Source: Lentimicrobiaceae bacterium
GTDB taxonomy: Bacteria; Bacteroidota; Bacteroidia; Bacteroidales; UBA4417
DNA length: 64,000 nucleotides
Direction of reading: 5' to 3'
NCBI GenBank assembly: GCA_041660125.1
Contig: JBAZWY010000003.1
Location: 164,030 to 228,029 of the forward strand
The first letter of the stretch is position 1, and every line of letters starts with the position of its first letter. The translations under genes were made by a program, and so were the position numbers. The notes below the pieces were generated by a model. The model was not told the DNA's origin. It searched no databases and saw nothing but the letters and a program-made list of their open reading frames with translations. Shown here piece after piece: positions 21,783 through 58,120 of the stretch.

Positions 21783-21791
21783 AATTGAGTC

Positions 21792-24182: not shown

Positions 24183-24192
24183 AAAAACTATT

Positions 24193-26506: not shown

Positions 26507-26560
26507 AGGAAAGGGAGAAGTTCAAATTTGACTGATTTAGTAAGAAAATAGCTCAAACTT

Positions 26561-28191: not shown

Positions 28192-28553
28192 TTCTGAACA
28201 AAAGTAATGCTTATATGATATTCCTGCAATAACATCTGATAAAATTGTTAAAATGCAAATAGCTGTTTAGGAATAAATTACATAATATTGGCAAAGCGAA
28301 AATTTTGTGTTTAGCGCTTATTTTGGTGCATGAGGTCAAATGCTGTTAGTGATGCTTGGATATGCTGGGTGTATTTGCTTTTTAAGCAAACACCATGACA
28401 GCAAAAAAGGACATGAAACCAGCCGGCATAGCCTGCATGTGTTGGAGCGAAAGCTTAAGGCACAGCAAATTCCCGTAAATATGGTCTATAACATAGAATT
28501 TGAAATTACCATCGGCTAACATTCAAGTTTTGAAATGCACAGGCATTAAAACC

Positions 28554-28618
28554 TGTGAATTATGTAACTTGAATATAAAGTTATGTAACACTTTCAGCCA
28601 TTCAGGATATTACCTTTG
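28554..28618 (+). promoter_or_regulatory. Island promoter module P1 (distal and proximal TGTAAC repeats plus -7 box)
   Basis: Sequence is TGTGAATTATGTAAC-N12-TTATGTAACAC-N19-TACCTTTG. The start codon at 28642 lies 24 nt after the box. Confidence 0.8.
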
Positions 28619-28945: not shown

Positions 28946-29140
28946 ATGAATCTAAAAAGAATCTTTGGCGCATTGCTCACATTACTTGGTATAGGTGGAC
29001 TGATCTATGCTGCAATAATAGCTGTAAATACATCAGGTGGAACACATAATATTAAGGCACTTGTCATATATGGCATTCTTGGCCTTATTTTCTTTGTTGC
29101 GGGTATCAGCCTGGTTCGCACCACGAAAGATGAATCGTAA
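28946..29140 (+). CDS. Small two-TM membrane protein of unknown function
   Basis: 64 aa (LLTLLGIGGLIYAAII ... GILGLIFFVAGISLV). It lies downstream of P1 in the same orientation. Confidence 0.6.
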   Translation: MNLKRIFGALLTLLGIGGLIYAAIIAVNTSGGTHNIKALVIYGILGLIFFVAGISLVRTTKDES

Positions 29141-29207
29141 TGTGTGAATGATGTAACACATAAATAGAATTATGTAACACATGCCGGAACATCACAAGGT
29201 ATCTTTG
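29141..29207 (+). promoter_or_regulatory. Island promoter module P2
   Basis: Sequence is TGTGTGAATGATGTAAC-N12-TTATGTAACAC-N19-TATCTTTG. It begins immediately after the stop codon of the previous gene. Confidence 0.8.
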
Positions 29208-34687: not shown

Positions 34688-34725
34688 TTCTAATGGGTTT
34701 TCTTATTGATTGTAAATAATTCTAA

Positions 34726-35943
34726 CTATCTCCAGTCCCTGACTAATTTTCTTTCCCCAATGTACAATTCGTTGGAAGAGTCAGGGTCAAGGGCCCATTT
34801 AATGCGATCGATTCCTTCGTTAATCTCTTTAATTGAACCGCAGAATGATATTCTAAGAAAACCGTCCATTCCGAATTCTTTCCCCGGCATAGTAAGAACT
34901 TTTACTTTATCGAGCAAGAACTTGGATAATTTGGTGGAATCCTTTTCATAAGCACTGAAATCTGCAAATGCATAAAAAGTTCCGTCGGGTGGAAGCAGAT
35001 GAACTCCATTGAAGGCTTTTAATCTTTCAACCAAAACTTTTCGGTTATTTTCAAGCGTGGTTCTTAAGGCATTGGTGCTTGATTGCACTCCGTTAATAGC
35101 CCCAATTGCTGCTTTTTGCAATAAAATGGATGGTCCGGATGTTTGATGCCCTTGAATATTCGACATCACTGCAATCAATGATTTGTTTGCTATTCCCCAT
35201 CCGATTCTGAAGCCAGTCATGGCATATGCTTTTGAAACTCCGTTAATGATGATGAGTTTAGAACTTTCGGAGAAATTACTGATATAATCAAAAGGATTCG
35301 CCACTTTTACCCCACCATAAACAAGTTTTTGATAGATATCATCCATGATAAGGTAGATGCTTTTTTTCTCGCAGAATTGCACTATTTCTGCAATAAAAGC
35401 TTCGGGGTAAACGGCACCCGAAGGATTATTCGGACTATTGATAATAATGGCTTTTGTATAGGAAGTAACATTTTGCTCAATGTCGTGCATTGTTGGAGTA
35501 AAAGTTCCGTCTTCGGGAACAACGGGTATTGGAATAGCTCCGCAAAGCTTGATCATTTCGGGATAAGACACCCAGTAAGGTGCAGGATAAATGACTTCAT
35601 CCTGAGGGTCAAGTATAGCCTGAAGTGCAACCATCAAAGCTTGCTTTGCCCCACTGGAAACGATTATATTTTTAGGTTCCACAAGGCGGTGATAGTTTTC
35701 TAATGTATATCTGATTACCGCTTTTTTCATATCAATGCTGCCATCCGCAGGTGCATACCTGACTTCTCCGCTATTAATGTGTGAATTCAGCGCCGTGATT
35801 GCATCCAATGGGGCTTTGCTTTTTGGTTCCCCACCACCAAGATGTATTACCGGTTCCCCTTTTGCCTTTAAGATTGCAAAGGTTTCATTCAGTTTCAGAG
35901 TAGCTGATTCATTGATCGACCTTCCTATAATGCTAATACTCAT
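34726..35943 (-). CDS. Class I/II pyridoxal-phosphate-dependent aminotransferase (aspartate aminotransferase-like)
   Basis: 405 aa. The PLP-lysine block is NGVSKAYAMTGFRIGW. NSPNNPSG is also present. Confidence 0.88.
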   Translation of the reverse strand: MSISIIGRSINESATLKLNETFAILKAKGEPVIHLGGGEPKSKAPLDAITALNSHINSGEVRYAPADGSIDMKKAVIRYTLENYHRLVEPKNIIVSSGAKQALMVALQAILDPQDEVIYPAPYWVSYPEMIKLCGAIPIPVVPEDGTFTPTMHDIEQNVTSYTKAIIINSPNNPSGAVYPEAFIAEIVQFCEKKSIYLIMDDIYQKLVYGGVKVANPFDYISNFSESSKLIIINGVSKAYAMTGFRIGWGIANKSLIAVMSNIQGHQTSGPSILLQKAAIGAINGVQSSTNALRTTLENNRKVLVERLKAFNGVHLLPPDGTFYAFADFSAYEKDSTKLSKFLLDKVKVLTMPGKEFGMDGFLRISFCGSIKEINEGIDRIKWALDPDSSNELYIGERKLVRDWR

Positions 35944-36098
35944 AATGTAATGGTTTTATAAATGCGTGAAAACGAATTTGTCAATTATGGTTAATTATTA
36001 AGGGGCATAAAATTAGGATAATTAAAGGAAACCATTCATCAAGAACGTTAATTTATTTGTGATATAAATAACAAATCTAACCTGTATTATTCGTGCAG

Positions 36099-36240
36099 GA
36101 GATAAAAGATAAAAGTAAAAAGATAAAAATCAGGCAGTTGCAAACCATTTTCATGATTTATTTTGTAAAGATGATTTTTATGATTGCCTTCATAATGTTT
36201 TGATCCTTTTGTCTTTATCCTTTTATCTTTTGTCTTTTTT
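36099..36240. repeat. Imperfect hairpin with tandem-repeat arms (GATAAAA-type units)
   Basis: The left arm gagataaaagataaaagtaaaaagataaaaat is complementary to the right arm tccttttgtctttatccttttatcttttgtctttttt. Confidence 0.75.
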
Positions 36241-36382
36241 GAAGTTTATGAAATAATCAAGCTAAAGAAGTTCAGGTTAATGAGTTAAGCGAAAATAGAA
36301 ATGTGGTTTTTCTTTGTTTATTTAAAGGCCAGGTCAGTCTTTTCTACCTGGATACTTTGAATAGCATCCGCTTTGGCAAGAC

Positions 36383-36603
36383 CCCTGTACCGCAATGTCA
36401 CATAGTTAAGCATTAGCTGATTTAAGAACAAGGATTATTCGCTCATTACCTATTTTTAAAAGGTGCTCATGAGTCGCTTTGCTTGTTAACGATTTAAGAT
36501 TTTAGATGTACATGATGATTTAACGAAACTTCGAAAATCAAAAATCGATGTTCCTAGTTCAATATTCAAATGAAACATCCTTAAATGACATTGCCCTGTA
36601 CCG
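36383..36603. mobile_element. Candidate non-autonomous element (MITE-like): 201-bp core with 8-bp terminal inverted repeats, flanked by a perfect 10-bp direct repeat
   Basis: Left end: CCCTGTACCG (36383-36392) followed by CAATGTCA (36393-36400). Right end: TGACATTG (36586-36593) followed by CCCTGTACCG (36594-36603). The interior has no ORF. Confidence 0.35.
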
Positions 36604-36863
36604 GTTTACATCGTCTTCTAACCCTTCAATCTGAATTTCGATAGTTTGCAGTTGAAGTTTCAATAAGGAGTTGTCCAATTGAATTAAAGCCTTTCCTTTT
36701 TATGAGTATCGGATATCATTAATAAGATTGATTATTGGAGAACAAATATTACCCCTCCGCCTATCGGATCCTCCCCTATGCTTTGGCTTCGCTTAGCATC
36801 CAGGGGAGGCAGATTTTAACCAACAGAATTGCAATCTGTTAAGTTAATACAACCCAACTCCCT

Positions 36864-36891
36864 CCCTGTCAGGCTGAGCGGAGTCAAAGCC
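36864..36891. repeat. REP-like element CCCTGTCAGGCTGAGCGGAGTCAAAGCC (copy 3)
   Basis: It differs by one mismatch from 24922-24949. It is embedded in a hairpin (cccaactccctcc ... ggaagagttggg). Confidence 0.8.
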
Positions 36892-37057
36892 AGGAAGAGT
36901 TGGGATGGTACATTATGGAGAAGAACAAATTGTTAATCTTTCCCGATATTCATTAAATAAAATTGCTGACTTAACGCAATCTTTTAGCAAACTTCACACT
37001 CAGTCTCTGTACCATAAATCCAGGAAAAGCCCAAAAAAAGGAACTACTTAAACAGGA

Positions 37058-38002
37058 TCATACTATTTTCAATTCATCAATTTCAATTTTATGTTTTATG
37101 ATTTTTACAGCATATCCGTTGGGAATTATTTTCCCCCCATGGTTTTCGGCAAACGCCCTGGTAAATTCGGCGCCAAAATAAAGTATGATAGCCGAGTAAT
37201 ATACCCACACAAGAATTAAAATAACGGATCCGGCGGCGCCATACCAGGACCCTATTGCTGAACGTCCAAGATACGCCCCGATTGCAAATTTGCCGATCAT
37301 AAAGAGAACAGTGGTAAAAGAAGCGCCGATAAGGCAATCGCGCAGAGCCAGTTGCCCGTCGGGTAGTGTTTTAAAAATTACAGTAAACAAGACTGTAATT
37401 ATACCGAAAACGACCAGCAGGTTGAAGGCATAAAATAAATATACTGTATCCTTCGGAAAATAAACTGCCAATCGCGTGTTCAGCAAATCCATTAATGAAT
37501 TAATAATTAATCCGACCAGCAACAAAAAGCCAACTGAACCAATCATGGAGAAAGACATCAGGCGGTTTTTGATAAATTTAACCAGGCCACGTTTCGGTTT
37601 TGCTTTAAGTCCCCAGATAAAATTGATTGAATCCTGAATTTCGACAAATACGCCTGATGCGCCTATCAGTAAAATGATTACGCCAAATGTGGTTGCAAAT
37701 GTCGAGCTGTGTGAAAGTTTTACGTTTTTTATTATTTCCTGTATCTGTAATGCTGCGGCGTTACCTACCAGCCCGTTTATCTGCCCGAAGAGTTCGCCCC
37801 TGACAGCTTCCGCTCCATAAAAGAAACCCGACAGACTTATAATGATAATGAGGAGTGGCGGTAATGAAAAAATGGTGTAATACGATAAGGATGCTGCTAA
37901 CTTCATACCATCGTCTTCGAGAAATCCATTATAAGTATCCTTCAGGAGCATTCCTGCCTTTTTAATTTTAACTATTATTCGCAATTTATCAAGATGCTTC
38001 AT
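37058..38002 (-). CDS. YihY/BrkB (virulence factor BrkB) family membrane protein
   Basis: 314 aa. AASLSYYTIFSLPPLL opens the family-typical six-TM pattern. The end reads YYSAIILYFGAEFT. Confidence 0.82.
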   Translation of the reverse strand: MKHLDKLRIIVKIKKAGMLLKDTYNGFLEDDGMKLAASLSYYTIFSLPPLLIIIISLSGFFYGAEAVRGELFGQINGLVGNAAALQIQEIIKNVKLSHSSTFATTFGVIILLIGASGVFVEIQDSINFIWGLKAKPKRGLVKFIKNRLMSFSMIGSVGFLLLVGLIINSLMDLLNTRLAVYFPKDTVYLFYAFNLLVVFGIITVLFTVIFKTLPDGQLALRDCLIGASFTTVLFMIGKFAIGAYLGRSAIGSWYGAAGSVILILVWVYYSAIILYFGAEFTRAFAENHGGKIIPNGYAVKIIKHKIEIDELKIV

Positions 38003-38051
38003 TTTGCTTGATGTGTTAAAATTTTTGAAATTTACTGCATTCTGTATAAGC

Positions 38052-38146
38052 GTTTCAGGGTTTCAGGGTTTCAGAGTTTCAGAGTTTCAGAGTTTCAGGG
38101 TTTCAGGGTTTCAGAGTTTCAGGGTTTCGCGTTTCAGAGTTTCAGT
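38052..38146. repeat. Octamer tandem repeat GTTTCAG(G/A), about 12 copies, with a partial complementary arm at 38190-38248
   Basis: The repeat can be read directly. The right-hand sequence aaactctgaaacc / ccctgtaatcctgaacc is imperfectly complementary to it. Confidence 0.9.
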
Positions 38147-38284
38147 TAACAAGATTTAGATACATATAAATTACCTGGTATTCAGAACTTGTAACCCTGT
38201 AATCCTGAACCGAGTGCAGAGAGCTCAGCGCAGCTAAACTCTGAAACCAATATTCAATTACAACAGCCCATTTCCCAAGCCAGT

Positions 38285-40132
38285 TTACTGAAACATCACC
38301 ACCGCCGGTTTACCTATTTCAAAATCACGGAAACCAAAATCAACCGTACGGAATGAATTTCCTTTAAAAACATTTTCCCCGATACCCGGAATAGTAGGAT
38401 AATAGGCAATAGACAGTTGAAATGTATTTATTACCAGGTTATCGTTTTTTATTAATATTCCTAACCCGATTTGCGAATACAGCTTACTGTTTCTGAATCC
38501 GGTTGCTTCATTACCAAGTCGTCCAAGTGTTAAGGTAAAATATGGCCCAAAACGGAATCCAATAAAATTCCATGGAGCATAGGATTGGGTTTGTAAAGTG
38601 ATAATCATCCGACTGACTCCTGACAATGAAGAACTGTTAAACCCATCCATTCCAAATCCATCATTTAAAGTAAGACTATCATAAGCAAAGCGGTTGATAC
38701 CAATGGTGAGCTGTGGTTTTACAAATTGCCTGAATTTCCATTTCCCTATTTCGATTAAGCCTGTAAAATAATTGATACCTGCAGTAACAACGCCTTGTTC
38801 GGCACGCGATGCGTTAAAAAAAGTTCCCGATTCGAGATTAAAGCTTAGATATCCCCAGGGATAATAATTGCCGGACGAAATTCGACCTCCAAAGTAAAAA
38901 CGGCCATGATTATTTTTTACCTGGTAACCGCCTGTCAGGCTGTAAACCCTTCCAACAGGAACATCTTCGGTTACACCAAATCTAAAGATGTATTTATCCT
39001 GAACATATTTTCGTGTTGAAATACCAATGCTTGCCAGGTAAAATTTTTCATTTGAAAAAAAATGCTCTGTATCATATGCTTCATCAGGTTTTTCGAGATA
39101 GTGTACATTTAAAAGTCGAAATGCAGAAATAAAATTAGTGGTACGATTAAATTCAGTATTCCCTTTGAAAAGCTGTATGGCATTACCTGCCCAGTAGTCC
39201 TGAATATTAAATTTAAATGGCTGCAGTACCAATGCCGAGTCATTGGCATGAATAAAATCCTTCCGGAATTGCTGCGAAAAATTTATTCCGGCTGCCCACT
39301 TTGCAAAGGGTGAAAAAAACGGGCGATCCATTCCTATGCTTCGTGTATAGTTCCCTGATTCTTCTTTGCCCATATGAAATGTTGAGCTGATATAGGTATT
39401 CCGAATGTTGGGAATATGGTAATTCAACTTGTAAGCGTAGTTGCCGACGGCATCATTCCATGTAAATTCATTTTTCGATTCGTGGCCTAAGCCCATGAAA
39501 TTGTTGTCTTTTAAATTAATGTTGATGCTGGTTGCGGAAAAGGCCCCGTCAGGAATAATACTCCATCTATCCAATTCGCGGATAAAAATATCAACAGAAT
39601 CGGAATTCTTTGCTGTAGTTGTAACAAAAAATGAAACATCGGTTACATAAGTCATGCTTCGCACAAGGCGTTCCGATTCTTTCACAAGCAACGAATCAAA
39701 TACCTGATTTCGCCGGATAAGCAGAAGGTTCCTGATAGTGATCCTTTGTGATTTTATATGAAGTTTATTCGCGTTTTTCGCAAAAGCACCTTGTTTTTTT
39801 TCAATAGTATCGGCAATCGAATATCCAAATGGATCCAACGTTTCAATATTAATATGCCTGATAATTTTTCCTTCGAAAGCGCTGTATGGTTTTCGAATCA
39901 GTTTTTTATATACTTTCTTTTTATCATTCTTTTTTTGCGAACTAACTGCTATTGGTTTAAAAAACACGTGGTACATGTACTTTGTGAACTTACGTTTCAC
40001 CGAAAACGATTCTATATTCTTATAAACTTTGGTTGAATCTTTCGTAACCGGGGTCTTTTGGGCAAATGCAAAATCATTTGTTAAAACTGAAACAAAAAAC
40101 AGTATGAAAAGTATTTTAAACCATTTTTGCAT
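38285..40132 (-). CDS. Outer-membrane beta-barrel protein, Omp85/BamA-superfamily-like
   Basis: 615 aa with a signal peptide. The POTRA-like segment IRHINIETLDPFGYS is followed by LKDNNFMGLGHE and long alternating beta-strand patterning. I did not verify family assignment by search. Confidence 0.55.
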   Translation of the reverse strand: MQKWFKILFILFFVSVLTNDFAFAQKTPVTKDSTKVYKNIESFSVKRKFTKYMYHVFFKPIAVSSQKKNDKKKVYKKLIRKPYSAFEGKIIRHINIETLDPFGYSIADTIEKKQGAFAKNANKLHIKSQRITIRNLLLIRRNQVFDSLLVKESERLVRSMTYVTDVSFFVTTTAKNSDSVDIFIRELDRWSIIPDGAFSATSININLKDNNFMGLGHESKNEFTWNDAVGNYAYKLNYHIPNIRNTYISSTFHMGKEESGNYTRSIGMDRPFFSPFAKWAAGINFSQQFRKDFIHANDSALVLQPFKFNIQDYWAGNAIQLFKGNTEFNRTTNFISAFRLLNVHYLEKPDEAYDTEHFFSNEKFYLASIGISTRKYVQDKYIFRFGVTEDVPVGRVYSLTGGYQVKNNHGRFYFGGRISSGNYYPWGYLSFNLESGTFFNASRAEQGVVTAGINYFTGLIEIGKWKFRQFVKPQLTIGINRFAYDSLTLNDGFGMDGFNSSSLSGVSRMIITLQTQSYAPWNFIGFRFGPYFTLTLGRLGNEATGFRNSKLYSQIGLGILIKNDNLVINTFQLSIAYYPTIPGIGENVFKGNSFRTVDFGFRDFEIGKPAVVMFQ

Positions 40133-40366
40133 TTGTTGTCGTTGGGTAATTTGAAAGTATCAGTTGATTGCAGGTAGGTTTCACGTTCTTACATACTGTT
40201 AAATTGGTCGGGCGTCCGAAGCCGGAAGGAGTCCTTTAACTTTTCAAAATACTGTTTAAAGAGATCTTTAACAGTTAATTATTCCATTCTTCATACACAA
40301 CAGATTTCCAGCTTTCCACTCCCGACTTCATGCTCCCGACTGCCTGTTCAGCTTCAACCTCCACCA

Positions 40367-41080
40367 CTACTTCTTCTTCTCTTCCGCTTTCTCTTTCAGC
40401 TTTTCAGCGTCTCTTGCTTTCTTTTTAAAGTATCCTTTTAAGAAAATATTATGCTTAACTGCTTTCATGTTTTCATCCAGTCCCTTGGAACTTGTTTTAA
40501 GGTTCTCAATGGTTTGATTCAGATTTTCAGCGATGGCCGTATCCTGAATCAGCCTGCCCAGTGTTCCCTGCCCGGTGTTTATATAGGACATAATATCAGC
40601 AAGTTGCTCCGAAATAACTTCGGCGTTAGCCGCTGTCACCTCCAGGCTTGCCATGATGGCATCCGTTTCAACAGGCTCGGTTGATATGAGTTTTTGACCT
40701 TCTTTCGCTAAAGGCGCTTCGGTACTGCCTTGGGTAATGACCAGGAGCCGGTCACCAATAATTCCTTCGGAACCAATGGCAACCTGACAATCGGATTTTA
40801 TAAACTGGTGAACTTCTTTCCTGACCAACATATCAACCCTTACGGTTGAATCATTTATGATGACGATATTGTCAACTGTGCCAACATTAATGCCTGAAAA
40901 ACGGATGTTGTTTCCAACCTGCAACCCGCTAACATTATAAAACGTTGTAGTGAGTTTAAAAACAGGATTAAACAGGTTTTTTTGTCTCCCGATTATAAAA
41001 ATGGCCAGTACAAAAATAGCCAGTCCTCCTGCGACAAAAAAGCCTAAGCGTATTTTAAATTTTTGTGAGTGCGTTTCCAT
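40367..41080 (-). CDS. mlaD: MlaD/MCE-family substrate-binding protein (operon 1)
   Basis: 237 aa. It has an N-terminal TM, an MCE core (NVSGLQVGNNIRFSGINVGTVDNI) and a helical tail. Confidence 0.82.
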   Translation of the reverse strand: METHSQKFKIRLGFFVAGGLAIFVLAIFIIGRQKNLFNPVFKLTTTFYNVSGLQVGNNIRFSGINVGTVDNIVIINDSTVRVDMLVRKEVHQFIKSDCQVAIGSEGIIGDRLLVITQGSTEAPLAKEGQKLISTEPVETDAIMASLEVTAANAEVISEQLADIMSYINTGQGTLGRLIQDTAIAENLNQTIENLKTSSKGLDENMKAVKHNIFLKGYFKKKARDAEKLKEKAEEKKK

Positions 41081-41130
41081 TGGATGTGTTTTTTTAGGCT
41101 AGTTGAGTATTTATGTTGGTTATTCGTTAA

Positions 41131-41356
41131 TTGATCATTTGTCATTCGATGGTCATTCAGTTGTTGAGGATAAAGTTTTTGAGCTTTGGGAGATTGGTGA
41201 GTTGTCATTCGATGGTCATTCAATTGTCGTTAGACAAGAACTTTGAGTTATTGAGGTTATTGGAGAGTTGGTATATTTTACATTAAAAGGGATTTGTGAT
41301 TTGTGCTCTGTGAGTTTTGATTTATGACCAGCGACCAGTGACTAGTAACCAGTAAC
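41131..41356. repeat. Block of direct and short tandem repeats between the mlaF and mlaD genes of operon 1
   Basis: GTCATTCGATGGTCATTCA(G/A)TTGT occurs at 41141-41164 and 41204-41227. gatttgtgatttgtg and gaccagcgaccagtgactagtaaccagtaac lie at 41291-41356. Confidence 0.85.
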
Positions 41357-41376
41357 TTAGAAATTGATAATGATTT

Positions 41377-42159
41377 TTAGTTGAAAAATGACTTTATCAG
41401 CGGGTCGGCTGAGTGTTCAAAGTCTTTGAGTTTTCCTTCCTTGTAAACTTCCCCTTCGGCCAGCATGATCATCCGGTCGGAAGTTGCAAGCGCGCATTTG
41501 ATATCATGGGTTATGATGAGAGATGAGGTTTTATATTTTTTCTGGACTTCATTAATGAGTTCACTTATTTCATCAGAAGTTACAGGATCAAGTCCTGTGG
41601 TGGGTTCGTCGTAAAGCATGATCATAGGGTCCACAACAATGGTGCGTGCAAGGCTTATCCGCTTGCGCATACCGCCCGAAAGTTGCGAAGGCATTTTATG
41701 CAGTGCATCAGCCAGACCAACATTTTCGAGAACTTCATTGATTTTTTCTGCCATTTCTTTTTCTGAGAGGTTCTTTCTTATCCTGCGCAACGGGAATTCC
41801 AGGTTCTCTTTCACCGTCATGGAATCATATAGTGCGCCACTTTGAAAAAGGAAACCTATTTTCTGCCTCAATTCGCTCATTTCCATTGTATTCAAGGTAG
41901 TTACATTTTTATTGAACACGTTTATAGTGCCACCATCGGGGCGCAACAAACCAACAATACATTTTATCAGAACCGACTTGCCACTGCCTGATTTTCCCAG
42001 CACTACCAGGTTTTGGCCATTAAAAAGCTTTAACGAAACATCTTTTAATACTTCGTTTGAACCAAATGATTTTTTCAGGTGGTTTATTTCAATAACCGGC
42101 TCTTTGCCCGGAATTTTTGATACAGCCTCAACTGTGGTTTCAGTTTGTTCCATCATCAT
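41377..42159 (-). CDS. mlaF: MlaF-like ABC transporter ATP-binding protein (operon 1)
   Basis: 260 aa. Walker A GKSGSGKS, signature LSGGMRKRISLAR, Walker B IMLYDEPTTGLDP. Confidence 0.88.
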   Translation of the reverse strand: MMMEQTETTVEAVSKIPGKEPVIEINHLKKSFGSNEVLKDVSLKLFNGQNLVVLGKSGSGKSVLIKCIVGLLRPDGGTINVFNKNVTTLNTMEMSELRQKIGFLFQSGALYDSMTVKENLEFPLRRIRKNLSEKEMAEKINEVLENVGLADALHKMPSQLSGGMRKRISLARTIVVDPMIMLYDEPTTGLDPVTSDEISELINEVQKKYKTSSLIITHDIKCALATSDRMIMLAEGEVYKEGKLKDFEHSADPLIKSFFN

Positions 42160-43019
42160 GATGTTAGCATATCAGTAAACTGTACGGCAATCATATCCAC
42201 AATTATTACCAGGAGTGATGCCAATACTACGGCAGAATTTGCCGCAACACCGACACTTTCAGTTCCACGCCCGGCATTATACCCTTTGTAGGTTCCTACC
42301 AATCCGATTACGGCCCCGAAGAAAAATGATTTTATAAAGGCAGGTAAGAAATCCATAAAATTAACGGAAGCAAATGCCTGGTGGAAAAACAGGACAAACG
42401 AAACACTGCCTTTTATATTGGCTCCTGCCCAACTGCCTAATATACCAAATGCATCGGCATACAAAATCAGGAGCGGAATCATAAGCGTTGCTGCCAACAC
42501 ACGAGTTACAACTAAAAATTTCATGGGATTAGTTGAAGATACTTCCATAGCATCAATCTGCTCGGTTACTTTCATTGAACCCAGTTCGGCTCCCATGCCT
42601 GAACCGATTTTCCCTGCGCAGATCAATGCGGTTATAACCGGTCCCATTTCCCTGATCAGCGAAACTGCCACCATACCGGGAAGCATACTAACCGCTCCAA
42701 AATCAATAAGTACCGGTCTTGATTGAATGGTAAGCACCAGGCCCATGATGGCTCCTGTTACCGAAATCAATGGCAGTGACTTGTAACCGATCTGAAAACA
42801 CTGGCGAAAGAATTCTTTAAACTCGAAGCCGCGCGAGAATGTTTCTTTTACAATTCGCGTTAAAAACAGTATTACATCGGCAAAATCAGTCAGGAAACCG
42901 CCAGCGGCTTCGGTTTTTTTCAGTGTTTTATCACTGAGCTTACTCATGGATTGCACGGTAGCCACCCTAATCTTTGGAATAGCCTTTCGTACGGGACCTG
43001 TATTTTTTATTTTCTCCAT
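42156..43019 (-). CDS. mlaE: MlaE-family ABC permease (operon 1)
   Basis: 287 aa. The conserved block is REMGPVITALICAGKIGSGMGAELGSMKVTEQIDAMEVS. It overlaps mlaF by 4 nt. Confidence 0.88.
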   Translation of the reverse strand: MEKIKNTGPVRKAIPKIRVATVQSMSKLSDKTLKKTEAAGGFLTDFADVILFLTRIVKETFSRGFEFKEFFRQCFQIGYKSLPLISVTGAIMGLVLTIQSRPVLIDFGAVSMLPGMVAVSLIREMGPVITALICAGKIGSGMGAELGSMKVTEQIDAMEVSSTNPMKFLVVTRVLAATLMIPLLILYADAFGILGSWAGANIKGSVSFVLFFHQAFASVNFMDFLPAFIKSFFFGAVIGLVGTYKGYNAGRGTESVGVAANSAVVLASLLVIIVDMIAVQFTDMLTS

Positions 43020-43125
43020 GCCTTAGCGTATGATGTTAAAAGCAATTTATTTTCAATCAGATAATTTTTCATTTCCTTTAAATAGAAAATGCCGGACGCA
43101 ATGTTCCTTACTATTTGAATGTGAA

Positions 43126-43192
43126 CAAAATTACATGCAAACCACAGTGAAAGTGTTACATAACTATTTCAATAATTTACATGATTCACACA
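43126..43192 (-). promoter_or_regulatory. Island promoter module P3
   Basis: The minus strand reads TGTGTGAATCATGTAAA-N12-TTATGTAACAC-N19-TAATTTTG. It lies about 105 nt upstream of the mlaE start at 43019. Confidence 0.78.
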
Positions 43193-43257
43193 TTGAATCA
43201 AAGTGATAAAATGTTGTTTATTATACTTAGTGTGGGATAAAATCACGCATTCAGAAA

Positions 43258-43357
43258 AATCCAAGTCCCAAGTCCCAAATCTAAAGAACCAAGACCTACT
43301 CTAAATTCCCTCTTGGAATTTTGAGTTTGGAATTTGGAATTTGGAATTTGGGACTTA
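43258..43357. repeat. Hairpin with tandem-repeat arms (CCAAGTCC / TTTGGAAT octamers)
   Basis: tccaagtcccaagtcccaaatc is followed by tttggaatttggaatttggaatttgggactt. It lies directly downstream of the stop of the 43410..44393 gene. Confidence 0.85.
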
Positions 43358-43409
43358 ATGGATGAGGAAATTTATCCCGTTTTCATTATATATTGAAAAT
43401 CTTAATGGA

Positions 43410-44393
43410 TTACTTCTCAGTCGCTTCACTTACTTTCGCATCCTCTTTTGTCTTCTTCTTAAAATACCCTTTCAGCAAAAAATTACTCTGTGCTGCTTTA
43501 AGATCTTCATCCAGTTTCTGAGAGCTGGCTTCAAGATTTTTGATGGTCTGTTTTATACGTGCACCTGATTCCTCATCGCGCAACAATATACCAATTGAAG
43601 TATTAGGATTAGTGCCTGCTTGTTTAAGATCAGCAATAAACGCTGTAGCTGTATCCGCAATCTGTTGCAACTGAAGCACGGAAGCTTTCACAGATTTAAA
43701 GACTACTGTATCTGTTGTTAATTCATTGGCCAGTGTCCCTTTTTTATTCAGGCCCGAACTGAAAGTGGCAAGCGAACTCACCAATTCCTGTGCTTTCGCA
43801 GATGCAGTCTGAAGCGATGCAGTGGCAGCGTTGATTTGGGTGTAAACGGCATCGTCGGTCAGAAATTTGCCGATGGTGCCTTCGCCGGCAGCTAAATTTT
43901 TACTGATCACTTTAAAATCGTTAGTGATAGCGAGGAAGTTTTTGTTGTTTTCCTGTAATGTATTGATCATATCTTCCGAAGTAAAAGTCTTTTCCACGCC
44001 TAAGATGTCTCCTTCCTGAACCTGGCCCGAACTCATTGTGCCTCCGTAAATAACCAGGATTTTATTCCCGATAAGCCCATCACTGCTTAATTTAACCTTT
44101 GAATCTTTACGGATATACCTCTGAGCTTTTACTTCAATCTTCATAGTTACTTCCACCTGTGAAGTTCCATGAAAACTCAGACTGCTCACAGTTCCTATTT
44201 TTACACCTGAAAACCATACGTTATTCCCTTTTTGTAAGCCCCCCACATCATCGAAAAGTGAACCAATTTCCATTTTGGTTTTAAAAGTTTCGTGAAGGTT
44301 ACCTACCATAAGGATTCCCGCAATAAAAATCAATATGCCTGTGATGATAAAAACTCCCACTATTACTGCTCGTCTGTTTGATGATTCATTCAT
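43410..44393 (-). CDS. mlaD: MlaD/MCE-family protein with a long helical C-terminal extension (operon 2)
   Basis: 327 aa. It has a TM segment and an MCE core (DVGGLQKGNNVWFSGVKIGTVSSL). Confidence 0.82.
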   Translation of the reverse strand: MNESSNRRAVIVGVFIITGILIFIAGILMVGNLHETFKTKMEIGSLFDDVGGLQKGNNVWFSGVKIGTVSSLSFHGTSQVEVTMKIEVKAQRYIRKDSKVKLSSDGLIGNKILVIYGGTMSSGQVQEGDILGVEKTFTSEDMINTLQENNKNFLAITNDFKVISKNLAAGEGTIGKFLTDDAVYTQINAATASLQTASAKAQELVSSLATFSSGLNKKGTLANELTTDTVVFKSVKASVLQLQQIADTATAFIADLKQAGTNPNTSIGILLRDEESGARIKQTIKNLEASSQKLDEDLKAAQSNFLLKGYFKKKTKEDAKVSEATEK

Positions 44394-44396
44394 GGC

Positions 44397-45173
44397 TTAT
44401 TGTATAAAATTGTAATTGAAAAAACCTTTTACCTGTTCATTATCCGAATCAAATACTTCTGCAAAGGATCCGACTTTTAAAAACCGGCCTTCGAGCAACA
44501 TTGCAATCCGGTTTCCCGTATTTTTGGCACATGTAAGGTCGTGAGTTATAATAACGGAACTGGTATTGTATTTGAGCTGGACTTCATTAATAAGTTCAAT
44601 AATTTCCGCACTTGTAACCGGATCGAGTCCCGATGTGGGTTCATCATACAGCATAATTTCGGGCTTCAGTATTAATGTGCGTGCTATCCCAATTCGTTTT
44701 CGTTGTCCACCCGAAAGGTCCGATGGCAGTTGGTTTGCTTTGTCCTTTAAACCGACAGCTTCCAGCACTTCATCCAGCACTTCATCCACATCTTTTTTAC
44801 TCAGGTTCTTCCTGTTCATGGTTAGCGGGAAAGCCAGGTTATGGTAAACATTCATGCTGTCGTATAAGGCACTGCTCTGGAACGAAAACCCGATACGCAA
44901 CCGCAATGCATCCAACTCTTTTCGTTCGAGTTTATCTACATGTTGGCCAAGCACCAGCACTTCACCTTTATCAGGTTTCAGCAAACCCACAATTATTTTT
45001 ATTAACACAGATTTCCCTGTGCCTGATTTACCTAGCACAGCGATATTCTCACCTTTAAAAAGCTCAAAATCAATTCCTTTCAATACATGCAATTCGCCAA
45101 ACGACTTGTATAATCCACTGATTGAAATAACCGGCTTATCATAATCTATAGTATGTTGTTTCAGTTCTTCCAT
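44397..45173 (-). CDS. mlaF: MlaF-like ABC transporter ATP-binding protein (operon 2)
   Basis: 258 aa. Walker A GKSGTGKS, signature LSGGQRKRIGIAR, Walker B IMLYDEPTSGLDP. Confidence 0.88.
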   Translation of the reverse strand: MEELKQHTIDYDKPVISISGLYKSFGELHVLKGIDFELFKGENIAVLGKSGTGKSVLIKIIVGLLKPDKGEVLVLGQHVDKLERKELDALRLRIGFSFQSSALYDSMNVYHNLAFPLTMNRKNLSKKDVDEVLDEVLEAVGLKDKANQLPSDLSGGQRKRIGIARTLILKPEIMLYDEPTSGLDPVTSAEIIELINEVQLKYNTSSVIITHDLTCAKNTGNRIAMLLEGRFLKVGSFAEVFDSDNEQVKGFFNYNFIQ

Positions 45174-45177
45174 CGCT

Positions 45178-45972
45178 TTAAAAATATCGGATCCAGTTCG
45201 CTAACTGAACAATGATAAGTTCCTCAATAAATATCAGGAACATGGCAAGCACAACAGCCTGGTTCGCCGCTTTGCCTACGCCCCGGGTTCCCTGTGTGGC
45301 ATTAAATCCTTTGTAAGCCCCAACCATTCCGATGGTAAAACCGTAAACAAGTGCTTTGGTTACAGAGGTAAATATGTCGAGAAAACTGATGGTTGAAAAT
45401 GCGCTTTGGTAGAAGCTAATAATGCTGCTGGCTTCCTCCGTATGAACATTCACGTACGAGCCATACAACCCGACAAAGCTGCAATACAGCGACAGGATGG
45501 GAATGGTGATTGTGGTAGCCAACACCCGTGTAACCACAAGGTATTTAAACGGATTGATTGCCGATACTTCCATGGCATCAATCTGCTCGGTTACTTTCAT
45601 GGAACCCAGTTCGGCGCCTATACTCGATCCCACTTTGCCGGCGCAGATAAGCGCCGTAACCAAAGGCCCCAATGCTCTTACCAGTGCAATACCGATTAAC
45701 GAAGGCAGCCACGATGTAGCTCCGAAATCCTCCAGCGAAGGACGCGATTGTTTTGTAAAAACCACGCCAACTATAAATCCTGTAAGTGTAATTAAAGGCA
45801 GTGACTTTAATCCGACTTCGAAGCTTTGGTTTATTACTTCACGAAGGTGAAACGGCGTTTTAAAAGCTTCTTTAAAGAATAAAGCAACAAAACTCCAGGC
45901 GCTTTGAACGCCTTCAAAATACTGGTCGATTCCTTTTGAAAACAGGTATTCCCTTTTCGTAAAAATTGCCAT
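45178..45972 (-). CDS. mlaE: MlaE-family ABC permease (operon 2)
   Basis: 264 aa. The conserved block is RALGPLVTALICAGKVGSSIGAELGSMKVTEQIDAMEVS. Confidence 0.88.
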   Translation of the reverse strand: MAIFTKREYLFSKGIDQYFEGVQSAWSFVALFFKEAFKTPFHLREVINQSFEVGLKSLPLITLTGFIVGVVFTKQSRPSLEDFGATSWLPSLIGIALVRALGPLVTALICAGKVGSSIGAELGSMKVTEQIDAMEVSAINPFKYLVVTRVLATTITIPILSLYCSFVGLYGSYVNVHTEEASSIISFYQSAFSTISFLDIFTSVTKALVYGFTIGMVGAYKGFNATQGTRGVGKAANQAVVLAMFLIFIEELIIVQLANWIRYF

Positions 45973-46105
45973 TTAGAATTCAGGTATTGTAGAAGTGACT
46001 GATTTTAATGAAACCGTTAGAGTTAAAGATTGCTGAGCTTATTGTAATTGAATTGTTTCCAGCTCTCCTGATATTTTCAGGACTTAGTACCTCTAAATTA
46101 GATTA

Positions 46106-46172
46106 CAAAGGTGAAAACATCTAAAACATAACGTGTTACATAACTTTTTAAATTTGTTATATAATTCACACA
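46106..46172 (-). promoter_or_regulatory. Island promoter module P4
   Basis: The minus strand reads TGTGTGAATTATATAAC-N12-TTATGTAACAC-N19-CACCTTTG. It lies about 130 nt upstream of the mlaE start at 45972. Confidence 0.78.
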
Positions 46173-46394
46173 TAACCAAAGTCATTTGAAGGAATTTGCA
46201 TAGATCAGGCTGTTTCAAAACATATTTCAACGCACAAGTTCACAAAGGGTGCGCAAACATGCCTGGCCGCAAAAAGGGAACCGAAAAGACACTTTATTGA
46301 TGTAGGAATCTCTGCGAAACTCTGCGATTAGACTCAGCGGTCCTCTGCGTTTAAACTTTATGGGTTGAGACAGCTTCAGAGGATCATGTGCTTT

Positions 46395-48821
46395 TTATAA
46401 CACACTCCTATTTTTGCTGCGCTGTTTCTTAAAAAGATTCCTCGGCGCCCTGTCATTTAATTCATTCATTTTCGTATTGGCATCCCACAGCTTTTTGGGA
46501 AATTCTCCCTTGTAAACAATTTTATAGAATGAAAACCCATTATACGGAATCACGTTTTGGCCGGCATTAATTTTTATACGTTTCGCAACATCCCTTTCCT
46601 TGAAATACGAAAGGAAAGCGGTTTCCCTTTCTTTATTTAACTGATTGTATTTTGATTCAACAAGTTTCCCGAGCAGCCTTGTGCATTTATCTTGTACTGT
46701 GAACAACATTGAATCAGCTGTTTGTTTATTTAAATAGCTGATAAACTTTTCATCTTTAATCGACATTTTTTCAACTGATTCTGCATCTTCCCTGCTAAAG
46801 TCCGTTTCGTTTTTACTTTTGGTAGTCATGAAATATTTTTTCTTAGCCTCATAAATCAGGATATATTCTTTTTCCTTAACGGAATATTGTTGTGGCGAAA
46901 CAGCAATAGTTGCATCCGGATTTTTGACGAGGAAGTCAGCCATTTGTTCAATAAACTTTTTCTGCAGCTTGGTAAGTGAACTGCCCCGCATTTCCCATTT
47001 CACGGTAAGTGATTTTTCGATTTCAGTTTCTGTATTTTTTACTTCCATCCGGTATGCTGTGGTTGCAGGTTTAACAAAGATATTTCCGAGCACATCGATA
47101 ATCACATCATACAAATTAAATTTCGGATCCTTTAAATCACCGCTTATCGGGACTTCGTAATCAATCACATTACCTCGTTCGCGCATAAAAGCCATGATGA
47201 GCCGCATGGGAAGTCGTACAATACCTTTGGTTTTTTCCCGCTTTGTTAACCTGGGATCAATGATCACCAGGTGGTTGTCGCTTTTAATATTACCGTTTCT
47301 GACATGCCATGTGCCTTTTAATGAAAGTGTTCCCCGATCGAGAGGGAACGAAGTGTATTGAATCAGGTACGGATTAAACAGTGCAACAGGTAGTTTCTGG
47401 AGTAAATAATTCAGGTCAAAATCAGAGCTGTCGTTTGGATTTATGCTAAGGGCTACCGTCGCATTTCCATAAGGCTGAATGCCTGATTTAATAGAAACGC
47501 TGACTCTTTTTTGGTTTTTGGTAATGGAATCAGCCTGCGCATAAAGTGGGTTTAAATGCATGGAGAATTTTTCACTTAACGAATAATCATTGAACTCCAG
47601 GTCACCGTTGTATATGGCCAGCCGGTTAATTTTGTAATTACTCCGGAAGAAATTCTGCGACAGTCGTTTTATATAATTACCTATTTCGAGAACAAGGTTA
47701 AATTTGGCTCCTGGTGACTGCGTAACAGCTGCTTTGGTTTCTTCCGAAACAAACATTCGTGTAAGGTTATCGAGGTAATCGTAACGCTCATATTTGAAAT
47801 AGGGATTATTGAGCGACACTGAATCAAAAATGTATTTTTCATTTTTCGGACTAAGCTCGAATATAGCTAAAGCCAGTTTATGAAAGGAAGCATAATCTTC
47901 GCCTGGTCTTTCGCCTGTGCGAAAATCGTTAATTGCCAAAAGTCCCCTGAAAGTTACATTCTCAGCAGTTTTAAAGCTACCCTTAACTTTCAGGTCTGCG
48001 TCAATATTACCTTTGAAATATCCGAAATTGGTTAACTCCTTAAGGTATTGTTCCAGGATTTCCAGGTCGAATTTTTGAGCCACCACGGCCAGCCGGTAAT
48101 CGAGACTTTTAATATTGATGGTAAAATTTCCACTCATACTTCCGCCTCCGATGCCTGATAGAAACGAAAATTTTGCTGCTATTGTGTCAGCATCCCAATG
48201 GATGCCTGTACTTTCGATATTTACTTTTTTGATAAAGTAATTTATAGGTGTAACCCTTTCACGGTAATAGAATTCGCCATCCACTATTTTAATCTTGAGA
48301 ATACTGAAGTGAACTGGTGCTGAAGCCTTAATGGAATCAACTTTCGGGGAAAACTTTTTAATCAGGTCATCAAAATTCAAATCATTATCAATCTGAATAA
48401 TAATCCCTTGCGGTTTATTTAATGTTAGCTCACTGATTTGATAGGTTTTGGAGAAGAGCTTCCATATTTCAAAATTTGCACTGACACCTTTTGCAGAAAG
48501 GAAAATGCTGTCGCTTTGAAATTCATGAATTTTAAAGTTATTGAAATGAACATATCCGGTAAACGGGTTAACATAGGCCCAGTCCATCGTAATTTGCCGT
48601 CCGGTATATTTTAAGTCATATTTTTCGACCAGATACTTTGCTATTGGTGAAATAAGGATAATTACCAAGCCTGCTAAAACAATAAGTAAACTAATAAAAA
48701 TAAGAAGCGCTTTCAATGGTTTTGGCATATGCTTTCGCAGAAGGAATTTGCTACCTCTGGATTTGAAGGCAGTTACTATTCTTCTGAAAAAAGCAAAGAG
48801 TGGATTTGTTTTAAACGGCAT
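46395..48821 (-). CDS. DUF748/AsmA-like large envelope protein with an N-terminal membrane anchor
   Basis: 808 aa. It has a single TM (ALLIFISLLIVLAGLVIILISPI), then long beta-rich repeats of the type seen in DUF748/AsmA-family proteins. I assigned the family by eye only. Confidence 0.6.
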   Translation of the reverse strand: MPFKTNPLFAFFRRIVTAFKSRGSKFLLRKHMPKPLKALLIFISLLIVLAGLVIILISPIAKYLVEKYDLKYTGRQITMDWAYVNPFTGYVHFNNFKIHEFQSDSIFLSAKGVSANFEIWKLFSKTYQISELTLNKPQGIIIQIDNDLNFDDLIKKFSPKVDSIKASAPVHFSILKIKIVDGEFYYRERVTPINYFIKKVNIESTGIHWDADTIAAKFSFLSGIGGGSMSGNFTINIKSLDYRLAVVAQKFDLEILEQYLKELTNFGYFKGNIDADLKVKGSFKTAENVTFRGLLAINDFRTGERPGEDYASFHKLALAIFELSPKNEKYIFDSVSLNNPYFKYERYDYLDNLTRMFVSEETKAAVTQSPGAKFNLVLEIGNYIKRLSQNFFRSNYKINRLAIYNGDLEFNDYSLSEKFSMHLNPLYAQADSITKNQKRVSVSIKSGIQPYGNATVALSINPNDSSDFDLNYLLQKLPVALFNPYLIQYTSFPLDRGTLSLKGTWHVRNGNIKSDNHLVIIDPRLTKREKTKGIVRLPMRLIMAFMRERGNVIDYEVPISGDLKDPKFNLYDVIIDVLGNIFVKPATTAYRMEVKNTETEIEKSLTVKWEMRGSSLTKLQKKFIEQMADFLVKNPDATIAVSPQQYSVKEKEYILIYEAKKKYFMTTKSKNETDFSREDAESVEKMSIKDEKFISYLNKQTADSMLFTVQDKCTRLLGKLVESKYNQLNKERETAFLSYFKERDVAKRIKINAGQNVIPYNGFSFYKIVYKGEFPKKLWDANTKMNELNDRAPRNLFKKQRSKNRSVL

Positions 48822-48875
48822 TTAATTAAATGATTTTCTTTTTGATCTGCTTTCAACAGAACTCAAAATTTCTTG

Positions 48876-48942
48876 CAAAGTTCAGTTAGTAATGCCGGAT
48901 ATCTGTTACACAACTTTATATTAAAGTTATATAATTCACACA
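48876..48942 (-). promoter_or_regulatory. Island promoter module P5
   Basis: The minus strand reads TGTGTGAATTATATAAC-N12-TTGTGTAACAG-N19-GAACTTTG. It lies 55 nt upstream of the start at 48821. Confidence 0.78.
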
Positions 48943-48986
48943 TCAATTGACTGAAAATGAGTTGTAAAAGATAATCAAGATGAAAA

Positions 48987-49053
48987 TGTGTGAATGATGT
49001 AACTCTTGAATTTAATTGTGTAACGCATTGTAAAATTTCCCGACAGTACTTTG
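48987..49053 (+). promoter_or_regulatory. Island promoter module P6, back-to-back with P5
   Basis: Sequence is TGTGTGAATGATGTAAC-N12-TTGTGTAACGC-N19-GTACTTTG. Confidence 0.78.
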
Positions 49054-53260: not shown

Positions 53261-53283
53261 TTCCTAAAACTTAAACTTATCAA

Positions 53284-53350
53284 TGTGTGAATGATGTAAA
53301 TCTTTCCCATAATTGTGTAATGCTTTGCGGTGAGCAACGACTCACCTTTG
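53284..53350 (+). promoter_or_regulatory. Island promoter module P7
   Basis: Sequence is TGTGTGAATGATGTAAA-N12-TTGTGTAATGC-N19-CACCTTTG. Confidence 0.78.
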
Positions 53351-54624: not shown

Positions 54625-54695
54625 GTGTTTAATACAAAAGGAGTTTGGAAAAAAATATCAAAAACCATATGAGTTTAAACAACCCATTGCCTGAA

Positions 54696-54762
54696 TGTGT
54701 GAATAATGTAACTCTTTTACAAAATTGTGTAATGCTTTCAGGCAAATTGAGACTGATCTTTG
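54696..54762 (+). promoter_or_regulatory. Island promoter module P8
   Basis: Sequence is TGTGTGAATAATGTAAC-N12-TTGTGTAATGC-N19-GATCTTTG. Confidence 0.78.
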
Positions 54763-57906: not shown

Positions 57907-58120
57907 TTTAGTAATTGTTTACTTGTATAGTTACATTAATTAATTGCTGTGCATCGGAATAGTAACTACTTTATTTATGAGAACGACAAATATATTACAT
58001 CATTTAGTCGGGATTACACCACCGGTGCGATATTTATGAACCGTTATTGTTTATAAAAAAAATTGTTCTGTTTAAGAAAAATATACAAAATGACTTTTTT
58101 GTAATCTTATGAAGATTATG

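Follow-up and report, generated by a model that had tools for sequence, protein, structure and literature searches.

Organization of the locus

The window analysed in this work is a 64,000-nucleotide (nt) stretch of contig JBAZWY010000003.1 from a Lentimicrobiaceae bacterium of the order Bacteroidales (assembly GCA_041660125.1). Its central part holds two mlaEFD gene trios, a gene for a large barrel protein presumably located in the outer membrane, a brkB gene and a gene for a DUF748 protein, which are arranged behind three copies (P3, P4 and P5) of one promoter module (Table 1). An initial annotation, made from the letters alone, had listed nine open reading frames (ORFs) here. All nine were found on the minus strand exactly where it had placed them, and the MlaE, ABC ATPase, MlaD/MCE, DUF748 and BrkB assignments were upheld by hidden Markov model (HMM) searches with Pfam and NCBIfam. 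Its claim of three units behind a common module holds as well, P3, P4 and P5 all carrying the same promoter element.

The two trios are paralogous, with sequence identities of 51% between the MlaE copies, 58% between the MlaF copies and 26% between the MlaD copies. The start of mlaF1 overlaps the end of mlaE1 by 4 nt, and mlaE2 and mlaF2 are separated by a gap of 4 nt. Everything that makes up a MlaFED core is present, namely a MlaE permease, an adjoining ABC ATPase and an anchored protein with a single MCE domain. MlaD1 and MlaD2 are each predicted, from hydrophobic segments, to have one N-terminal transmembrane helix, and both possess helical C-terminal extensions that end in FLKGYFKKK. MlaD1 matches solved MlaD and Mce structures, MlaD2 also matches solved MlaD structures, and MlaE2 is homologous to solved MlaE and YrbE structures. 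The scores against the NCBIfam equivalog models are all under the cut-off, being 67 and 71 bits versus 135 for MlaD, 171 and 164 bits versus 315 for MlaE, and 162 and 151 bits versus 441 for the MlaF model NF008809. Among the window proteins scanned, no Pfam match was found for MlaA (PF04333), MlaC (PF05494) or MlaB (STAS). In Bacteroidota, MlaA and MlaC are missing and MlaD is extended, and the working of Mla in this phylum has been called an open question (PMC10212509, PMC11131202); the system of B. thetaiotaomicron consists of MlaEFD only, with an extended MlaD (PMC10212509). MlaEFD itself is regarded as the ancestral and widespread core (PMC10665443).

The DUF748 protein is matched by PF05359 with 271.6 bits (cut-off 50), and its match to the AsmA N-terminal model is weak, with 19 bits against a cut-off of 29.8. 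It has a single N-terminal hydrophobic segment (residues 31-66), and a profile search against the sequences of the Protein Data Bank (PDB) gave no match. The BrkB protein is supported by PF03631 (7e-47, 160.6 bits versus 33.7) and TIGR00765 (87.2 bits versus 73.15), and contains about six hydrophobic segments, as a polytopic membrane protein.

Table 1. Coordinates of the genes, promoters and other features (window positions unless a related locus is named; aa, amino acids)
Feature	Position	Strand	Remarks
YihY/BrkB-family inner-membrane protein	37058..38002	-	314 aa; PF03631, TIGR00765
Outer-membrane barrel protein of unnamed family (predicted)	38285..40132	-	615 aa; AlphaFold2 model, Foldseek
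MlaD1	40367..41080	-	237 aa; single MCE domain, PF02470 5e-14
MlaF1, ABC ATPase	41377..42159	-	PF00005 2e-34
MlaE1 permease	42156..43019	-	287 aa; PF02405 7e-70
MlaD2, elongated, single MCE domain	43410..44393	-	327 aa; PF02470 2e-16
MlaF2, ABC ATPase	44397..45173	-	PF00005 2e-33
MlaE2 permease	45178..45972	-	264 aa; PF02405 5e-68
DUF748 (AsmA-like clan) protein	46395..48821	-	808 aa; PF05359 2e-80
Promoter P3	43126..43195	-	module 43151-43195; -7 box TAATTTTG at 43126-43133
Promoter P4	46106..46175	-	module 46131-46175; -7 box CACCTTTG at 46106-46113
Promoter P5	48876..48945	-	module 48901-48945; -7 box GAACTTTG at 48876-48883
Other modules	28549-28593, 29138-29182, 48984-49028, 53281-53325, 54693-54737, 61995-62039	+	
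Other module	61802-61846	-	
8-nt tandem repeat GTTTCAGR, about 12 copies	38052..38145	.	inside the 282-bp barrel-brkB spacer
mlaF1-mlaD1 spacer, 296 bp	41081..41376	.	35-nt direct repeats and 7-nt tandem repeats at 41130-41356
PF06580-type histidine kinase (256 aa) and receiver protein (238 aa)	26739-28191	-	ORFs overlap by 35 nt
AraC-family gene, examples in related loci	L028:4378-4917, L041:16706-17245, L075:5461-6000		

The shared promoter module

The module has the consensus AATGTGTGAATnATGTAAC-N10-AAnTTATGTAACAC. It is built of two direct repeats of 11 nt each, AATnATGTAAC, which is preceded by GTGTG, and ARTTRTGTAAC. The repeats lie 21 bp apart and hence on the same face of the helix. 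A 45-nt weight matrix, trained on the ten window copies themselves, scores exactly 10 sites of the window at 46-56 bits. The next one reaches 3 bits, so that more than 40 bits separate the copies from the background, and shuffled sequence yields 15 bits at most. The same matrix detects the module upstream of orthologous genes in about 80 other genomes (80 related loci), and this independent support shows the module to be real. In a logo of 277 non-redundant sites from these genomes, conservation is limited to the two direct repeats, while the spacers vary.

At a fixed distance downstream of the module lies an A-n-C-T-T-T-G box, the TT of which is 99-100% conserved though it falls outside the matrix; the repeats lie about 22 nt upstream of this box. 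We take it to be the housekeeping -7 element of Bacteroidetes (TAnnTTTG), in which case the proximal repeat occupies the -33 position and the geometry is that of a class II activator site. The AraC I1-I2 and XylS sites have the same layout, with two direct repeats at a distance of 21 bp and the proximal one next to -33/-35. As far as can be read from the DNA, the module is a promoter and not a mobile repeat; a mobile or miniature element is rejected by the confinement of conservation to the motif, by the variable spacers and by the occurrence upstream of orthologues. A CRP/FNR-type palindrome, TGTGA-N6-TCACA, was also considered and rejected, since the second arm is TAACT with an invariant AA and the units are direct repeats.

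Two sets of related loci were compared. The barrel-anchored set comprises 80 GTDB species genomes with barrel-protein identities of 60-80%, from Lentimicrobiaceae, Prolixibacteraceae and other Bacteroidales metagenome-assembled genomes. The cluster is found, among others, in those of Draconibacterium and Mariniphaga (L024, L027, L070, L071 and L076). The DUF748-anchored set comprises 80 metagenome loci with orthologue identities of 54-99%, 61 of them with at least 3 kb of flank. In the barrel-anchored set, about 54 non-redundant loci have a module before mlaE1, 19 have one before mlaE2 and about 10 have one before the DUF748 gene. In the window, P5 is placed back to back with the plus-strand module at 48984-49028, which precedes a gene for a Big_5/ice-binding-like protein, and this divergent pair is kept in relatives.

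Linkage of the barrel gene and brkB to the first mlaEFD trio

Of the 67 loci with sufficient DNA on the upstream side, 60 have mlaE1-mlaF1-mlaD1 immediately before the barrel gene, at a median distance of 66 nt. As to the exceptions, L028, L029, L036, L043 and L062 carry a module about 150-670 nt 5′ of the barrel gene, L073 has no module, and L030 has little upstream DNA. On the other side, 33 of 64 loci have brkB as the next gene after the barrel gene. The two genes are often 14-60 nt apart, the median distance being 43 nt, and overlap by 4 nt in two loci. The second trio, mlaE2F2D2, is found immediately upstream of the first in about 22 barrel-anchored loci.

The initial annotation had left it open whether the barrel gene and brkB belong to the P3 transcript, pointing to gaps of 234 and 282 bp. 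Both figures are exact (40133-40366 and 38003-38284), and a third long spacer that it did not mention, of 296 bp, lies inside the first trio between mlaF1 and mlaD1, where the median gap in relatives is 35 nt. None of the three contains an ORF, a -7 box or a terminator-like hairpin on the coding strand. The -7 box was sought as TAnnTTTG; a sigma-70 scan is uninformative for Bacteroidetes, its counts being at or below the shuffle expectation. The long, repeat-filled spacers are a peculiarity of the window genome, as those of its relatives are several times shorter. Given the synteny in relatives, and spacers with neither -7 box nor hairpin, the barrel gene and brkB are assigned to the mlaE1F1D1 transcript; the adjacency counts favour one transcript, of which brkB would probably be the last gene.

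Tandem arrays with units of 7-8 nt (also 14 and 21 nt) occur in intergenic spacers at 38052-38145, 41291-41356, 43313-43351, 16047-16108 and 58119-58165.

Structure and relationships of the barrel protein

The 615-aa barrel protein has no match in Pfam or NCBIfam, and profile searches against the sequences of solved structures gave no match either. It belongs to a large family: 3623 relatives were collected by a word-indexed search, and an exhaustive profile search gave 2853 clusters at 50% identity, whose members are named just "hypothetical protein". An AlphaFold2 (AF2) model computed from a deep alignment reached a predicted local distance difference test score (pLDDT) of 87.8 and a predicted template modelling score (pTM) of 0.83, and supersedes an earlier model from a shallow alignment with a pLDDT of 61. 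The model consists of a signal peptide, a lysine-rich disordered stretch, a POTRA-like unit (residues 90-188) folded as beta-alpha-alpha-beta-beta, and a large barrel (residues 192-591). About 20 strand segments were assigned past the POTRA-like domain by DSSP, versus 16 strands in an Omp85 barrel.

The initial annotation had called this protein Omp85-like, a description that fits its architecture better than its sequence. By the criterion that the annotation itself had set, support from HMM searches, the assignment fails. In favour of it stand the POTRA-like domain followed by a barrel, and a Foldseek search against the PDB that gave a BamA or TamA structure for each of the top 50 matches, the lowest E-value being 2e-12 and the template modelling (TM) scores just 0.3-0.4. 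The sole recurrent Pfam family among 60 diverse relatives is POTRA (PF07244), weakly present in 22 of the 60 with a best E-value of 1.5e-4; the window protein itself has no PF07244 match. Against it, the Omp85 model PF01103 matches neither the window protein nor any of the 60 relatives, and hhalign comparison of the barrel profile gave non-significant probabilities of 2% with E. coli BamA and 9% with TamA, the alignment covering the POTRA-like region alone, against the last POTRA of either protein. The loop-6 motif (V/I)RG(F/Y), which reads VRGF at position 660 of E. coli BamA and IRGY at 476 of TamA, is missing. Close to where the barrel starts, an invariant N-F/L-x-G-x-G is similar to the DNWLGTG of BamA. 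Judged from the model, the protein resembles Omp85 proteins in architecture and fold, but its membership of the Omp85 family is not demonstrable. The signal peptide ends with AFA-Q and has no cysteine or lipobox, so the protein is not a lipoprotein of the TamL type; with one POTRA-like unit instead of three and no lipobox cysteine, a TamL identity (as defined in PMC12045153) was rejected.

Distant relatives with about 28-30% identity, such as those at L082:8001-10004 and L084:8001-9896, have lipid- or envelope-flavoured neighbours and no mla genes. As these relatives sit elsewhere, the link to mla is a property of the present subfamily. Within this very large, unnamed family with its Omp85-like fold, one subfamily has a fixed place next to mlaEFD.

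The DUF748 gene and its neighbourhood in relatives

A module lies within about 360 nt 5′ of the DUF748 gene in about 45 of the roughly 76 DUF748-anchored loci with upstream DNA, and about 13 more have one at 0.9-1.3 kb. Of the 61 well-flanked loci, 21 contain mla genes; at least five arrangements occur, in some of which the gaps measure 15-135 nt. The DUF748 gene may be followed by mlaE2F2D2, with a gap of 15 nt in L099 and of just 85 nt in L001, where no module stands before mlaE2. It may also be followed by mlaE1F1D1, come after mlaE1F1D1, or face a mla trio convergently, and in a further order mlaEFD1, the barrel gene and brkB precede it. A linkage that is reshuffled yet persists under one promoter type points to a functional relationship of the three units.

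The initial annotation regarded the arrangement as unusual. Three systems do stand side by side; however, many lineages of Bacteroidales share the entire arrangement, module included.

The wider set of module-bearing genes and a candidate regulator

The genes behind the other seven modules of the window encode a 61-aa membrane protein; a 133-aa protein; the Big_5/ice-binding-like protein, followed by an OmpA-barrel protein; a 180-aa protein of no assigned family, followed by a possible small outer-membrane barrel; YtxH and holin-like small proteins; a B12 radical-SAM enzyme; and a DUF5670 peptide. Together with P3-P5, these modules make up a 34-kb module-rich island, and none occurs at the housekeeping genes in window positions 1-28 kb. 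The genes standing directly behind modules in relatives encode CsbD (28 instances), YtxH, Gly-zipper/OmpA lipoproteins, sigma-70 and extracytoplasmic function (ECF) sigma factors, and YceI, and L,D-transpeptidases, outer-membrane barrels, ice-binding-like proteins and an AI-2E-family transporter recur in the same related loci.

Taken by their predicted products, the module-bearing genes look like a general or envelope stress regulon. CsbD and YtxH belong to the SigB regulon of Bacillus (PMC7824861). Different from the sigma-B system, control in the present organism would use an activator, the identity of which is discussed below, on a housekeeping-type promoter rather than an alternative sigma factor. 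No description of a CsbD/YtxH/AraC regulon or of this module in Bacteroidota was found in the literature searched. The module had been called inducible from the outset; we infer inducibility only from the regulon content in relatives, which would fit a stress programme.

The best candidate for the regulator of the module is a small AraC-family protein (about 180 aa, HTH_18), the gene of which recurs in 14 of the 80 barrel-anchored and 13 of the 61 DUF748-anchored loci. In 8 of those 14 cases its stop codon lies inside the module: the module starts 9 nt before the end of the gene, AAT GTG TGA is read as N-V-stop, and the TGA falls within the conserved GTGTGAAT. In two loci the module is positioned 80 or 288 nt upstream of the AraC gene. 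A homology search found no AraC homologue encoded in the window.

Downstream of the module-driven radical-SAM gene, the minus strand encodes a tandem pair of paralogous proteins (about 520 aa each; 56362-57906 and 58284-59873), the DNA of which is about 75% identical. The C-terminal halves of both match models of GH130 beta-1,2-mannobiose phosphorylases, below cut-off. A radical-SAM identity was rejected for these two, which are GH130-like instead; only 60177-61691 encodes a B12 radical-SAM enzyme.

Other features of the window

Genes for phosphoenolpyruvate (PEP) carboxykinase and an aminotransferase lie between brkB and a gene for an M1 peptidase (33023-35943). They are missing at that position in the closest complete relatives (L001 and L003), so this part of the island is rearranged. 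A 31-nt element, TCCCTGTCAGGCTGAGCGGAGTCRAAGCCAG, is present in four copies, at 24921-24951 and 36863-36893 (97% identical), 26558-26588 and 17151-17181, one of which lies in a non-coding stretch of 1.1 kb (35950-37057) downstream of brkB. An Rfam scan of the window, the 31-nt element included, gave no match. At 14791-26506 there is an efflux cluster of the MacAB-TolC type with a HlyD-family adaptor, two ABC ATPases and a TolC-like outer-membrane efflux protein; one MacB-like permease is confirmed by Pfam, and two ORFs of similar size share near-identical 3′ ends with it.

A public 28-kb metagenome contig of the Joint Genome Institute (JGI), Ga0208789_1000661 (L088), carries the same modules, and the proteins compared, from p178 to mlaE1, are 97-99% identical to those of the window. 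With 99% identity across the DUF748 match, this contig probably comes from the same population.

Comparison with known lipid transport systems

The window resembles the Mla system of E. coli (MlaFEDB, MlaC and MlaA-OmpC/F) in having MlaE, an ABC ATPase and a membrane-anchored MlaD with a single MCE domain encoded in one operon. Compared with it, the MlaD proteins of the window are longer, with 237 and 327 aa and C-terminal extensions versus 183 aa for the solved E. coli MlaD chain; the trio is duplicated; the genes for the POTRA-barrel protein and YihY are placed in the operon; and MlaA, MlaB and MlaC are missing among the scanned window proteins.

The closest precedent is the mlaEFD-tolC-tamB cluster of Veillonella parvula and other Negativicutes; in Veillonella, Mla and TamB act antagonistically (PMC10665443). 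Both clusters combine a minimal MlaEFD, devoid of MlaA and MlaC, with an elongated MlaD, an outer-membrane barrel and an AsmA-like gene (TamB in Veillonella). In Veillonella, however, the barrel is fused to the C-terminus of MlaD, whereas in the window MlaD has no barrel and a separate POTRA-barrel protein is encoded downstream. By analogy, a conduit in the window organism would be a "split" version of the MlaD-barrel fusion; the fused form is absent from the Fibrobacteres-Chlorobi-Bacteroidetes (FCB) group, Bacteroidetes included (PMC10665443). Further differences are that the AsmA-like member is TamB/DUF490 in Veillonella and DUF748 in the window, and that a dedicated promoter module is present in the window.

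The trigalactosyldiacylglycerol (TGD) system of chloroplasts, with TGD1/2/3 and TGD4, likewise joins a transporter of the MlaE/MlaD/MlaF type to a separate outer barrel, and serves here as an analogy only. TGD4 is an outer-envelope barrel for lipid transfer between membranes; it has no POTRA domain and no sequence relation to the barrel protein of the window. Orthology between Mla and TGD has been stated (PMC10345924). The TamA-TamB and TamL-TamB pairs also offer a likeness, being composed of an Omp85-fold barrel and an AsmA-like protein anchored in the inner membrane (PMC12045153). Different from this translocation and assembly module, the barrel protein of the window contains a single POTRA-like domain instead of three, and the main linkage of its gene is to mlaEFD, not to the AsmA-like gene.

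Proposed model and alternative explanations

We favour, with moderate confidence, the view that the locus is a conserved envelope neighbourhood of Bacteroidales, in which three transcription units of one promoter design are co-induced for lipid trafficking between the membranes. Family assignments, the architecture and conservation of the promoter, and gene linkage are what the sequences show. The P3 unit would comprise mlaE1-mlaF1-mlaD1, the POTRA-plus-barrel outer-membrane protein and YihY/BrkB, the P4 unit mlaE2-mlaF2-mlaD2, and the P5 unit the DUF748 gene. A small AraC-family activator would bind the module as a class II site on a housekeeping-type promoter, and with the same module before general-stress and envelope genes, one signal likely switches on a programme that includes lipid trafficking. 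Two MlaFED complexes, working without MlaA, MlaB and MlaC, would hydrolyse ATP at the inner membrane, their helical MlaD assemblies reaching out into the periplasm. The outer-membrane end of the MlaFED1 system may be formed by the POTRA-barrel protein. The DUF748 protein might be a groove-type bridge that lipids cross passively, working with the Mla systems or opposing them in the way TamB does in Veillonella. An assisting role at the inner membrane could fall to YihY/BrkB; YhjD of E. coli, a paralogue in the same family, has been linked to the transport of lipid A precursors and lipopolysaccharide (PMC3219608). The lipid substrate, the direction of transport and all contacts between proteins are what we infer in this scheme.

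Several points weigh against it. The module could be a repressor site, or could merely mark growth-phase promoters. The AraC gene is absent from the window and from most of the related loci, and two-component pairs adjoin modules, a histidine kinase/response regulator pair in the window and a LytTR-type pair in L001. Upstream of the barrel gene, mlaEFD is missing in 7 of the 67 orthologous loci, and relatives of the barrel protein with about 28-30% identity adjoin PagL, a lipid A deacylase, and peptidase M49, or DUF481 and a fatty-acid desaturase. A contact between the barrel protein and MlaD is unsupported, and the barrel is not detectably Omp85 by sequence. Finally, the long spacers could conceal promoters or terminators from simple scans.

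A more far-reaching proposal, which we put forward tentatively and which may well prove wrong, is that the POTRA-barrel family is the missing outer-membrane component of Bacteroidota Mla systems devoid of MlaA and MlaC. Together with an extended MlaD1 hexamer, and possibly YihY, it would form a continuous trans-envelope lipid conduit, deployed along with the DUF748 bridge and the second MlaFED under an AraC-controlled stress regulon. No literature on a link between Mla and a POTRA-barrel protein was found.

First among the alternatives, the POTRA-barrel protein might have the DUF748/AsmA-like protein rather than MlaD as its partner, as in the TamA-TamB and TamL-TamB pairs, the mla genes being merely co-regulated neighbours. 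TamA is indeed among the closest solved folds, Omp85 barrels are known docking sites of AsmA-like proteins (PMC12045153, PMC10345924), and the DUF748 gene comes immediately after the barrel gene or brkB in five loci (L068, L079, L135, L153 and L167). We nevertheless consider this partnership unlikely, given that the linkage of the barrel gene with mlaE1F1D1 (60/67) is far tighter than that with DUF748, which lies within 10 kb in 13 of 80 barrel-anchored and 5 of 61 DUF748-anchored loci, and given that DUF748 adjoins a mla trio more often than it adjoins the barrel gene.

Another explanation is that the locus encodes nothing more than the lineage's housekeeping Mla and AsmA-like systems, the motif being an ordinary growth-phase or repressor element with no dedicated switchable programme. 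The wide distribution of the MlaEFD core, the MlaEFD-only system of B. thetaiotaomicron, the housekeeping sigma type of the -7 box and the fact that no further mla genes were seen in the window would all agree with it. It is difficult to reconcile, however, with two adjacent paralogous trios, with a module restricted to 10 window promoters in a 34-kb stretch and found at none of the housekeeping genes, and with the classic stress proteins CsbD and YtxH among the other targets. We therefore regard it as improbable.

In regard to the regulator, the module might be bound by a LytTR-type response regulator rather than an AraC protein, with a PF06580 histidine kinase as the sensor. Direct repeats with a 21-bp period are typical of LytTR sites. 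The kinase/receiver pair of the window is divergent from the module at 28549-28593, and in L001 a protein with Response_reg and LytTR domains and a PF06580 kinase are divergent from the orthologous module. On the other hand, the C-terminal half of the window receiver matches no known output domain, LytTR included, and the protein is not the orthologue of the L001 pair (no match by tblastn); a LytTR gene recurs in no set of loci, unlike the AraC gene, which recurs and is fused to the module. As Bacteroidota possess LytTR systems in great number, mere proximity says little, and we hold this alternative to be quite unlikely. Least probable is a protein-secretion or assembly device (a TpsB-like exporter or BamA paralogue) serving regulon proteins such as the Big_5/ice-binding-like one. 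Polypeptides are the classical substrates of POTRA-barrel proteins, and Big_5/ice-binding-like and OmpA-barrel genes often stand nearby behind the same module; yet the barrel gene keeps its place 3′ of mlaD1 while ice-binding genes shift position, and the loop-6 motif of BamA and TamA is lacking.

The initial interpretation of a switchable programme of envelope-lipid remodelling is thus reasonable and partly supported, but it overstated how unusual and how inducible the arrangement is. What appears to be new is the presence of the barrel gene and brkB in the first mla operon, a barrel subfamily fixed to mlaEFD, and a stress-type regulon defined by the module with a probable AraC regulator. The POTRA-barrel gene, fixed behind mlaEFD in dozens of Bacteroidales genomes, is a candidate for the outer-membrane end of Bacteroidota Mla, and the repeated joining of AsmA-like and mla genes echoes the functional coupling of Mla and TamB in Veillonella. 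The module may, with its stress-type targets and the AraC protein as its likely regulator, mark out a regulon for general or envelope stress.

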